DNA from: Candidatus Methanomethylicia archaeon
Lineage (GTDB): Archaea > Thermoproteota > Methanomethylicia > Nezhaarchaeales > B40-G2
DNA: 64,000 nt
Direction of reading: 5' to 3'
Assembly: GCA_029259155.1 (NCBI GenBank)
Contig: JAPDJI010000004.1
Span: forward strand, 1-64,000
How positions within the stretch are numbered: the stretch's first letter is position 1; each line of letters starts with the position of its first letter. The notes under the pieces are model-generated. The model searched no databases, was not told the DNA's origin, and worked only from the letters and a program-made list of their open reading frames with translations. Below are positions 21,905-43,765 of this stretch, piece by piece. The translations under genes and the position numbers were made by a program.

Positions 21905-21977
21905 TAGCTTAAGCTACTATGCAGCGTTACGCTGAGGCAAGCTTAATTTCTTCGCCTCTATCAAGGCGGTGAGGTAG

Positions 21978-22063
21978 CGGGCCCGGCGGGATTTGAACCC
22001 GCGACCACTCGGTTAAGAGCCGAGCGCTTTCGGCTTTCCTCTACCGTGCTAAGCTACGGGCCC
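21978..22063 (-). tRNA. tRNA-Lys(CUU) with 12-nt non-canonical D-arm intron at 22/23 (22029-22040)
   Basis: GGGCCCG/CGGGCCC-G, CTCGG-CTCTTAA-CCGAG; insert AGGAAAGCCGAA forms CGGT/GCCG helix with 3-nt bulge. Confidence 0.9.
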
Positions 22064-30039: not shown

Positions 30040-31362
30040 GTGTACTTTTTGCCCTTATCTTCAGCCTCCTCCTTGGATAAGGAGCTTGGCATGTTATTCT
30101 ACGCCTCCACTGTAGAAGGGATAGGAGGGAGGATTAAGTGGAGGTTGGAGGATTTTGTGGTAGAAGAGCTCGCAGCTCCAGGAAGGTTACTAGATCCTCC
30201 TTTAGGAGGAGGTTACACCCTTTTCCTTGTAGAAAAGAAAGGTATAGATACGTTCACGGCTGCAAGGAGATTGGCTAAAGCCTTAAAGGTACCTTTAAAC
30301 GATGTTTCCTACGCAGGCTTAAAGGACGCTAATGCTGTAGCTGTACAGCGATTCTCGATCAAGGGAATGATACCCCTAAGCCTAGAAACAACCCCCCTTA
30401 CTGGTCTGAAGATATTAAAGGTTCAACCTTTCCATAAACCCCTAGCTAAGAAGGACCTTTACGGGAATCGTTTCACGGTGACGGTAAGAGCTATACCCCT
30501 AAATCCTGGCGAAGCCCTCAGCAAGGTTAGGATGGTAATCTATCAGTTAATGAAGCGAAAAGGCTTCCTGAACTATTATGGCTACCAAAGGTTCGGGACC
30601 AAAAGACCTAACACCCATATCGTAGGGAGGTATATTGTCAAGGGTGACTTTGAAGCTGCTGTTAACGAATACCTCTTCCACGCCTATCCTGAGGAAGGTA
30701 TCATTGTACGCAGGGCAAGAACAGCGGGTGATCTTAGAGAATCGTTGCGGCTGATGCCTAAAGGAATGGTGTATGAACGCCGAATGCTGAATTACCTTAT
30801 TCACCACCCCAATGACTATGTTGGAGCCTTGAGGGTACTTCCTAAAGCCTTACTGAGGCTTATAGTGGAGGCTTACCAAGCATATCTCTTCAACAAGACG
30901 CTAAGCTATAGAGTGCGAGCTATGCGTGACTATCATCTACCTATGGAAGGAGATTACGTGGTAACTGAAGATCGCTCCTTTAAGGTTAAGGATACTAGTA
31001 TGGTCGAGAAGTTCTCCTCGATGGTTGAGGAAGGCTCGGCATGCGTAGCTATCCCTCTACCTAGTTATGAGCTTAGGCTTCAGCCTCCACTTCCTCCTTT
31101 CTTAGAGAAGGTCTTGAAGGAGGAAAAGGTTTCATTAGAGGATTTTAAAGTCGAAGAGTTCCCCTACGCTAGTCTTCTTTCAAGGCCTAGAAAGATTGTT
31201 TGTAAACCTGAAGGCTTTACGATAATTGAGGTAGACAAAGACGAGCTTAACCCTCCCTTAACTAAGTTGACTTTACGCTTCATTTTAGAGAGAGGAACCT
31301 ACGCTACATCGCTGCTAAGAGATATATTGAAGCCTATCGATCCTTCTAGCTCTGGCTTCTAA
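30040..31362 (+). CDS. truD: tRNA pseudouridine synthase TruD/aPus7
   Basis: EDFVVEE, YAGLKD, GNRF, NYYGYQRFG, AYQAYLFN, GTYAT. Confidence 0.94.
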   Translation: MYFLPLSSASSLDKELGMLFYASTVEGIGGRIKWRLEDFVVEELAAPGRLLDPPLGGGYTLFLVEKKGIDTFTAARRLAKALKVPLNDVSYAGLKDANAVAVQRFSIKGMIPLSLETTPLTGLKILKVQPFHKPLAKKDLYGNRFTVTVRAIPLNPGEALSKVRMVIYQLMKRKGFLNYYGYQRFGTKRPNTHIVGRYIVKGDFEAAVNEYLFHAYPEEGIIVRRARTAGDLRESLRLMPKGMVYERRMLNYLIHHPNDYVGALRVLPKALLRLIVEAYQAYLFNKTLSYRVRAMRDYHLPMEGDYVVTEDRSFKVKDTSMVEKFSSMVEEGSACVAIPLPSYELRLQPPLPPFLEKVLKEEKVSLEDFKVEEFPYASLLSRPRKIVCKPEGFTIIEVDKDELNPPLTKLTLRFILERGTYATSLLRDILKPIDPSSSGF

Positions 31363-43615: not shown

Positions 43616-43765
43616 CCCCGGGTAGCTCAGAGGTAGAGCGCTCGGCTGTAGGTGTTGGCCGGCGGGTGAGGGCGTAAATGCGCGCGGTGACCCCTGCTCA
43701 GCCGAGCGGTAACCGAGAGCTGTGAAGGCCGGGAATGGTCGAGGGTTCAACTCCCTCCCCGGGGA
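43616..43765 (+). tRNA. tRNA-Tyr(GUA) with two introns: 60 nt at 37/38 (43652-43711) and 18 nt at 43/44 (43718-43735)
   Basis: C1:G72/A73 Tyr identity, CTCGG-CTGTAG^A-CCGAG^TGGTC-GAGGG-TTCAACT-CCCTC; BHB-like motifs at both inserts. Confidence 0.9.
43652..43711 (+). ncRNA. Candidate intron-encoded H/ACA-like (K-turn) guide RNA for Psi35 of tRNA-Tyr
   Basis: K-turn (GA at 43668-69 and 43689-90); CAGCCGAGCG (43699-43708) is perfectly antisense to tRNA nt 25-34; TTGGCC is antisense to nt 37-42; no canonical ACA box. Confidence 0.6.

Follow-up and report, generated by a model that had tools for sequence, protein, structure and literature searches.

Can a tRNA intron guide the modification of the very tRNA from which it is removed? 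This question is raised by a tRNA-Tyr(GUA) gene in a Candidatus Methanomethylicia archaeon (Thermoproteota), located at 43616..43765 on the + strand of the stretch analyzed here, which comprises the first 64,000 nucleotides (nt) of contig JAPDJI010000004.1 (GenBank assembly GCA_029259155.1) and is hereafter called the window. A preliminary description of the window, made from its letters alone, had proposed that the 60-nt intron of this gene (43652..43711, +, between positions 37 and 38) is a self-targeting H/ACA-like guide RNA for the pseudouridine at position 35 (Psi35). Comparative analysis of tRNA-Tyr sequences indicates that the structure of this intron is real, ancient, and widespread. 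With slightly better than even confidence, we consider it to be an intron-borne, atypical H/ACA-like module which has only a 3' guide, is aimed at U35 of its own pre-tRNA, and would act with L7Ae and Cbf5.

Anatomy of the intron and its two folds

The gene matches the Rfam tRNA model (RF00005, 48.4 bits) and has homologous genes in relatives. ARAGORN with default settings missed it in the window, and ARAGORN -i mislabelled it because a second insertion is present in the variable region. This matters for annotation, as standard tRNA finders overlook such tRNA-Tyr genes or give them a wrong label. The anticodon (G34, U35, and A36) and G37 occupy 43648-43651, and the exon-intron junction was placed based on the tRNA model and on 12 relatives which have ACCGAG as exon 2.

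All elements of the intron are on the + strand. A 5' linker (43652..43660) is followed by the 5' strand of a stem, here called the GA stem (43661..43667), and by a GA (43668..43669) which represents positions 2n and 1n on the non-bulged strand of a kink-turn (K-turn). The apical hairpin (43670..43685; pairs 43670-75/43680-85, loop 43676-79) forms the C-stem of the K-turn, with 5/6 pairs, one G.U, and one G.G mismatch. The bulged strand (43686..43690) consists of a GGT bulge (43686-88) and a second GA (43689-90; positions 1b and 2b). Then come the 3' strand of the GA stem (43691..43698, 8 nt) and a 3' antisense, guide-like element, CAGCCGAGCG (43699..43708). The GA stem contains five Watson-Crick pairs, one G.U, and one U.C which adjoins the G.A pairs, and the single bulged base that had been reported in it is T43695. 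The sequence fits the known K-turn pattern (3-nt bulge, tandem G.A/A.G, Watson-Crick C-stem, and a non-canonical stem beyond), in agreement with the preliminary description, all of whose coordinates are correct.

The antisense element is, as had been claimed, the exact reverse complement, over 10 nt, of tRNA nt 25-34 (43639..43648, +), with which it forms helix 1 of what we call the guide fold. Its first base pairs with G34, so that U35-A36 (43649..43650, +), the proposed target uridine and its 3' neighbor, are left unpaired where helix 1 meets the GA stem, with the K-turn ten layers away. This part of the earlier proposal is also borne out. On the other side of the junction, TTGGCC (43655-60) had been described as a 5' guide strand for nt 37-42. 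Such pairing can indeed form here (with one mismatch and one G.U), but it is absent in other relatives, a partial match (GGCC) being seen by eye only in L003. Among the 63 K-turn-type introns collected below, the 5' linker varies from 0 to 24 nt; TTGGCC was rejected as a conserved 5' guide, many DPANN introns having only 0-2 nt in its place (10/63). The stretch is more plausibly interpreted as one side of the intron helix (h') in a relaxed splicing motif. In the minimum-energy fold of the intron alone, intron nt 4-8 (43655-59) are paired with nt 50-54 (43701-05) in a 5-bp helix.

The second fold is the tRNA-like one, which presents a bulge-helix-bulge motif for splicing. Its central helix (nt 32-35 with 43706-09, intron positions n-5..n-2) has 4/4 pairs, including two G.U. 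Compared with the archetype, which has two 3-nt bulges and a 4-bp helix, the modeled motif appears to be relaxed: the 3' bulge (43710-12) has 3 nt, the 5' bulge about 5 nt, and the intron helix 5 bp. Because the 3' splicing strand and bulge (43706..43712, +) overlap the guide, the two folds are mutually exclusive, as had been suggested before; constrained folding of the precursor placed the guide fold below the tRNA-like fold by 7.1, 4.5, 2.7, and 2.2 kcal/mol at 37, 60, 75, and 90 C, respectively. In 25/63 introns the guide reaches the very end of the intron, and thus its bases take part in both folds by sliding 3 nt. In several lineages (for example, L072, L130, and L139), the guide and the GCAG splicing strand (n-5..n-2) are separate pieces of the intron, implying that the guide is not just the splicing helix.

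A conserved, covarying structure with a fixed register

To follow the intron among relatives, we used gene comparison, an exon-1 pattern, and a covariance model. BLAST of the gene against 41 relatives detected homologs over the full length, with 70-72% identity, in three genomes of its family; in nine sister-family genomes, exon 1 was matched. The same layout (stem, GA, hairpin, NNU-GA, 8 nt, and antisense ending at G34) was found in 13/13 genes, including the present one (families f1 and f3). The exon-1 pattern located tRNA-Tyr in 49/62 genomes of the same class; 48 of these 49 loci were parsed and 45 are of the K-turn type. Three loci (L042, L065, and L066) fall short on the C-stem count alone, and the one that did not parse (L064) carries a larger insertion.

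An exon-1 scan of named genomes yielded at least 120 stretches, with 80 loci among the matches listed. Twenty of these 80 pass the parser and lie outside the class, and six further passing loci belong to it. Those outside the class, again among the matches listed, come from Woese-, Pace-, and Nanoarchaeota, a metagenome-assembled genome (MAG) of Thermoproteales, Pyrodictiaceae, Desulfurococcales, and MAGs labelled Methanosarcinales. Ignicoccus pacificus has a looser form of the architecture, which the parser does not accept. Among the same matches, Sulfolobales, Desulfurococcaceae, Bathyarchaeota, Aigarchaeota, and Micrarchaeota have short or plain introns, in which the architecture was not observed. 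When the class and the matches listed are taken together, 121/129 loci were parsed and 71 are of the K-turn type, corresponding to 63 unique introns.

A covariance model built from K-turn-type sequences (R2), which includes the exons, gave only one match in the genome studied here. It matched 134/151 sampled genomes of a DPANN phylum (that of genome G064) and 25/151 sampled genomes of the archaeon's own phylum. In the latter, ten loci outside families f1 and f5 were inspected: four are true K-turn introns with the 8-nt spacing, one of which (L260) represents family f4 of the same class, one has a spacing of 9, three are false positives which arose because the exons and CAGCC matched, and two were unresolved by the script. 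Two matches (L254 in G171 and L257 in G164, the latter unresolved by the script) are in complete genomes of another class of the phylum. In L254, which is a K-turn intron, the T-arm region of the host tRNA-Tyr looks disrupted, and this resembles what has been described for the permuted tRNA-Tyr of Thermofilum pendens. A DPANN genome has a second R2 match (G353:C11:6900-6947), which covers model positions 13-60 only, i.e., the K-turn hairpin without exons, and may be a free-standing K-turn hairpin RNA.

The preliminary description had made its proposal depend on whether the K-turn and the antisense strand are conserved and covary in relatives, and both the K-turn hairpin and the 3' antisense turned out to do so. 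Covariation was analyzed in the 36 matches which the model gave at E <= 0.05 among 52 sources, after alignment to this model. In the guide fold, 91.4% of the cells were paired, compared with 68.3% in shuffled data (reached in 0/500 shuffles), and 160 cells were changed on both sides, compared with 58 (0/500). When the partners were slid by 1-3 columns, paired cells dropped to 24-46%. Changes on both sides were observed in all six modeled pairs of the GA stem and in 6/6 pairs of the C-stem; in helix 1, two pairs (nt 27 and 28) were changed on both sides and four on one side. RNAalifold independently predicted the same three helices, and anchor-based counts agreed. Two MAFFT alignments (A1 and A2) misplaced the 5' half between lineages and were excluded from counting.

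The T-G-A of the K-turn is invariant in 32 aligned sequences. At the 2b.2n pair, the 63 unique introns have A.G (33), U.G (16), A.A (8), A.U (4), or C.A (2). In the K-turn literature, A.A and A.U variants are described as still folding as K-turns.

The pairing between the antisense element and nt 27-34 of its own tRNA is kept in relatives. Pairing at nt 30, 29, 28, and 27, on which the parser did not select, is present in 52, 53, 54, and 46 of 63 introns, respectively, and the nt 28 pair is variously C-G (27 of 63), U-A (23), or U.G (4). In register, 457/504 antisense positions are paired, whereas shifted registers gave 66-231/504. Across these introns, the antisense changes along with the anticodon stem.

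The spacing of the elements was analyzed in 104 unique introns of at least 35 nt, in which every TG[A/T/C] was combined with spacings of 2-15 nt, and an antisense was counted if it ran for 5 bp or more from G34. The antisense begins exactly 8 nt past the GA in 62 cases, and no other spacing exceeds 19. Given the 8-nt spacing, G34 is the partner of the first guide base in 62 introns and U35 in 2; A36, U33, or C32 takes this place in 0-1. Two G.A pairs plus 8 nt correspond to ten layers, which equals the published length of the H/ACA GA stem. According to the available text of PMC4652768, this stem has 10 bp in all crystal structures of H/ACA ribonucleoproteins (RNPs) and in 14/15 productive Pyrococcus abyssi folds, any change of its length is deleterious, and a bulged base can be stacked in so that ten layers are kept. 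The ten-layer ruler is the one feature for which the H/ACA reading accounts and its rivals do not.

A possible cis-acting guide and its known counterparts

In the proposed mechanism, 43699-43708 of the primary transcript would pair with tRNA nt 25-34 and thereby open the anticodon stem; U35-A36 would stay unpaired at the base of the 8-nt stem on which the K-turn sits. L7Ae would bind the K-turn and, via Nop10, position Cbf5 ten stacked layers away, at U35, which Cbf5 would convert to Psi35 in cis. The RNA might then refold to the tRNA-like form, in which the 3' nucleotides slide by three positions into the central helix of the relaxed bulge-helix-bulge, and the intron would be spliced out. Protein binding, catalysis by Cbf5, and this order of events are what we infer from the structure. 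The excised intron could also act in trans as a guide with a 3' strand only.

Genes for the required proteins are present. The genome encodes L7Ae (108 bits), Nop10 (77.9 bits), and Cbf5 with TruB_N, TruB_C_2, and PUA domains; the Gar1 match is weak (25.7 bits, under the cut-off of 29.3). Nop10 was found in 148/151 of the DPANN genomes scanned with R2. The cbf5 gene (L249, ~1018-2000, -, contig C2) seems to be interrupted, as it lies in two frames, one encoding the N-terminal part up to AGHGGTL (the catalytic motif) and the other the TruB_N/TruB_C_2/PUA part. This recalls the intron which reportedly interrupts the cbf5 pre-mRNA of Crenarchaeota.

The closest parallels are found among atypical H/ACA small RNAs (sRNAs). 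As reported in the available text of PMC11077068, H/ACA RNAs are functional in vivo without a lower stem or ACA box, the guide of sR148 is a 3' strand alone, Cbf5 modifies uridines within atypical guides via short intramolecular duplexes with the 3' guide, and Pyrococcus furiosus proteins accept atypical guides. sR109, sR136, sR148, and sR563 of Pyrobaculum and Sulfolobus islandicus resemble the intron module in having a single K-turn hairpin, no lower stem or ACA box, and a ten-layer GA stem. Unlike it, they are free-standing sRNAs whose named targets, in the text available, are rRNA sites save for one predicted tRNA target in Pyrobaculum; in the intron module, guide and substrate belong to one covalent molecule, from which tRNA splicing removes the module. 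The single K-turn hairpin with a single-stranded guide flank and neither lower stem nor ACA box conforms to this atypical form. By analogy, the module would work most like these guides, but it sits in a tRNA intron.

A second parallel concerns the target. Trans-acting H/ACA sRNAs (Sso1, Ape7, and sR115) are reported to guide Psi35 formation in pre-tRNA-Tyr of Sulfolobales and Aeropyrum pernix (PMC2651775, PMC11077068), sR115 of S. islandicus doing so across the intron (PMC11077068). As described there, they share with the intron module the target U35, a 3' guide that pairs with the stretch 5' of U35, a K-turn, and a precursor substrate. In contrast, these sRNAs have separate genes, a lower stem, an ACA box, and a bipartite guide which also pairs with the intron, the comparison being made by description only.

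The tRNA-Trp box C/D intron of Euryarchaeota resembles the module in its location: according to the parts of PMC4090602 and PMC11408192 available, it is a K-turn guide in a 37/38 intron that targets its own anticodon arm, with competing guide and splicing folds. It differs in belonging to a C/D RNP, in directing 2'-O-methylation of C34 and U39, and in residing in another tRNA. A box C/D reading of the tRNA-Tyr intron was rejected because a C/D box pair is lacking; no C box (RUGAUGA) was found near the 5' end of the intron, and CUGA after the antisense was seen by eye only in L002 and L004. A tRNA-Trp-like gene occurs in the genome studied here as well (contig C8:1282-1435); its anticodon loop contains CCA, it has two insertions, and ARAGORN calls it tRNA-Tyr. 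Its insertion at 37/38 contains C/D-like boxes, GGATGACGA ... CTCTGGAG, like those of the known tRNA-Trp guide intron.

The eukaryotic pre-tRNA-Tyr system is similar to the proposed module in that Psi35 is formed on the precursor and the intron is needed (as stated in the available part of PMC2651775), but it relies on Pus7, a stand-alone protein enzyme, and has neither a K-turn nor a guide ruler. In the literature searched, which left out most subscription-journal papers and all supplements, no description of an intron-borne H/ACA guide in tRNA-Tyr was found. The tRNA-Trp box C/D intron is the sole intron-borne guide named in the accessible text of the tRNA-intron reviews of 2014 (PMC4090602) and 2024 (PMC11408192), and the accessible text of PMC3218864 calls the T. 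pendens tRNA-Tyr intron canonical.

If the module functions as proposed, it would represent a third route to Psi35 in tRNA-Tyr, beside Pus7 and the trans-acting H/ACA sRNAs, and would be for H/ACA guides what the tRNA-Trp intron is for box C/D guides. It would account for the fact that tRNA-Tyr introns which are long and have a relaxed splicing motif persist even in DPANN with very small genomes. Moreover, one RNA switch could order pseudouridylation and splicing, and a minimal guide for Cbf5 would consist of a K-turn, a ten-layer stem, and one guide strand. A broader scenario, which we regard as possible but rather doubtful, is that pre-tRNA-Tyr guides its own modification by an ancient cis-acting H/ACA-like module that predates the split of DPANN and Thermoproteota, that the free guides of Sulfolobales are its escaped or replaced descendants, and that the intron dependence of eukaryotic Psi35 is a relic of it. 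In that case, H/ACA-type guides would have their first representative in a tRNA intron, which would also be the first to act in cis on a tRNA, and there would be a selective reason to keep the tRNA-Tyr intron.

Objections, rival explanations, and neighboring features

A number of observations weigh against the reading as an H/ACA-like guide, the most serious being the presence of Pus7, the antisense CAGCC in introns without a K-turn, and the degenerate K-turn of family f5. First, taken alone, the intron is statistically unremarkable: its fold energy has z = +0.97 relative to shuffles, and its stem score was reached by 33/200 shuffles. The feature exceeds chance only through comparison, because of its covariation, its fixed spacing and register, and its presence across many lineages, and the 36-sequence alignment used there was itself fitted to the structure and consists of related sequences. 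In family f5, the K-turn is off consensus (2b.2n U.G, A.A, or C.A) and helix 1 is interrupted at G30 by a bulge or a mismatch. Moreover, there is no direct precedent for action in cis on a whole pre-tRNA.

Second, membership in the canonical box H/ACA class was rejected. Three of its features are present, namely the K-turn in the upper stem, the ten-layer GA stem, and a target U with one unpaired base. Of the bipartite guide, the 3' strand is present and a conserved 5' strand was not found in relatives or in the 63 introns. The guide fold has no lower stem of 5-9 bp, and the 5-bp helix of the excised intron is built from the guide nucleotides themselves. An ACA or ANA box 14-16 nt 3' of the GA stem was likewise not found, consistent with the earlier remark that no ACA box is visible (positions 13-16 read A followed by ACC), and by eye no ANA at this distance was seen in family f3 or in the DPANN examples. 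In Rfam searches, tRNA alone passes the threshold, the match to the H/ACA RNA Pab19 (16.1 bits, E = 6.3) being at chance level.

Third, CAGCC, which is antisense to nt 30-34, is also frequent in non-K-turn tRNA-Tyr introns (25/47 have a run of exactly 5). The helix that ends at G34 is therefore no distinctive property of the K-turn module. It may serve Psi35 formation generally, whichever enzyme is used. Introns with CAGCC and without a K-turn include L068, L069, L073, L074, L085, and others, from Bathyarchaeota, Aigarchaeota, and Desulfurococcaceae. In some of them CAGCC directly follows the 5' splice site, which would put U35 in a 4-nt hairpin loop.

A rival synthase for Psi35 is encoded in the window itself. 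The TruD/Pus7 gene (30085..31326, +; PF01142, 368 bits), located 12 kb upstream of the tRNA-Tyr gene, has the catalytic Asp and the Lys of motif IIIa, TruD/Pus7 is present in 60/62 genomes of the class, and the anticodon loop of the tRNA-Tyr fits the Pus7 consensus quoted in the accessible text of PMC2651775. Psi35 could therefore be made by Pus7, with the intron helix that ends at G34 presenting U35-A36 and the K-turn with L7Ae only stiffening or stabilizing the fold at high temperature. We consider this account unlikely, though it is the main rival. P. abyssi Pus7 is reported to make Psi35 and eukaryotic Psi35 formation to be intron-dependent (PMC2651775), and the presence of CAGCC in introns without a K-turn also speaks for this account. 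U35-A36 at the 3' end of a helix strand may further be likened to U13-A14 at the end of the D-stem strand, an analogy of our own.

What Pus7 would leave unexplained is the fixed ten-layer distance between the K-turn and U35, equal to the H/ACA ruler, and the need for any K-turn at all. The sequence of the enzyme can be argued in both directions. Its motif II reads KD-AN-A, with Ala-Asn in place of the Arg-His of P. abyssi; the same replacement is described for Sulfolobales (PMC2651775), and Pus7 of S. islandicus is reported not to make Psi35 (PMC11077068). On the other hand, the R78A/H79N change alone reportedly hardly altered the activity of P. abyssi Pus7 on tRNA-Tyr at 80 C. We compared motif II in 21 genomes of the class, including the present one, and in 20 outside genomes (21 gene copies), and found that it does not track the intron type. 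After the catalytic Asp, module-bearing DPANN have K or R (H in one), a basic residue whose retention would suit Pus7, whereas Thermoproteota with or without the module have A, S, or T. As evidence, motif II is neutral. TruD was not matched in 4/5 genomes of Bathyarchaeota and Aigarchaeota, or in 9/30 genomes overall in that search, all of these being MAGs with completeness not reported. With the Pus7 gene present, Psi35 may be made here by either Cbf5 or Pus7.

A different possibility is that the K-turn is an L7Ae-binding element unrelated to pseudouridylation, with a role in the timing or chaperoning of splicing, in which the pre-tRNA would be kept in a fold that cannot be spliced, in the protection of the excised (possibly circular) intron, or as a guide directed at another RNA. 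L7Ae is said to bind many classes of archaeal RNA, as seen in an RNA immunoprecipitation sequencing study, and the guide fold competes with the splicing fold. K-turn-type introns also mostly have a relaxed splicing motif, with 3/4 pairs of the central helix in 51/63, compared with 4/4 in 38/47 of the other introns. We nevertheless regard such roles as quite improbable, for the antisense targets nt 27-34 of its own tRNA and covaries with them, a stabilizer or timer needs neither a fixed register nor a fixed spacing, and the lack of C/D boxes noted above argues against a guide of the other kind.

Finally, it is very improbable that the intron is a chance resemblance or a neutral, functionless relic. 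In favor of this view, the intron taken alone is no more structured than shuffles, and a descriptor scan of its genome for K-turn hairpins with an 8-nt stem gave a background rate of hits (85 compared with 71 in shuffled sequence, under a contiguous C-stem rule which probably excludes the tRNA-Tyr intron), but compensatory changes conserved across distant phyla contradict such an origin. The 8-mer YRGCYGRG occurs 1330 times in the genome and is too common to inform on a separate trans-acting Psi35 guide or on other atypical guides.

Two further features of the window were observed. The second insertion of the tRNA-Tyr gene, 18 nt in the variable region (43718..43735, +), is replaced in 12 relatives by a plain 5-nt loop (TGGTC in 10 and TGGCC in 2) and probably represents another intron, of a non-canonical kind. 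Judged by eye, a splicing-motif-like pairing is possible between its CGG and exon nt 39-41, and these exon nucleotides are free for it only when the guide of the first intron holds nt 27-34. The other feature is a tRNA on the - strand at 21977-22063, which has the anticodon loop CTCTTAA (Lys CUU), an insertion of ~12 nt in the D-arm, and an anticodon stem identical to that of the tRNA-Tyr; ARAGORN gives it a 4-base anticodon, and Rfam matches it in part.

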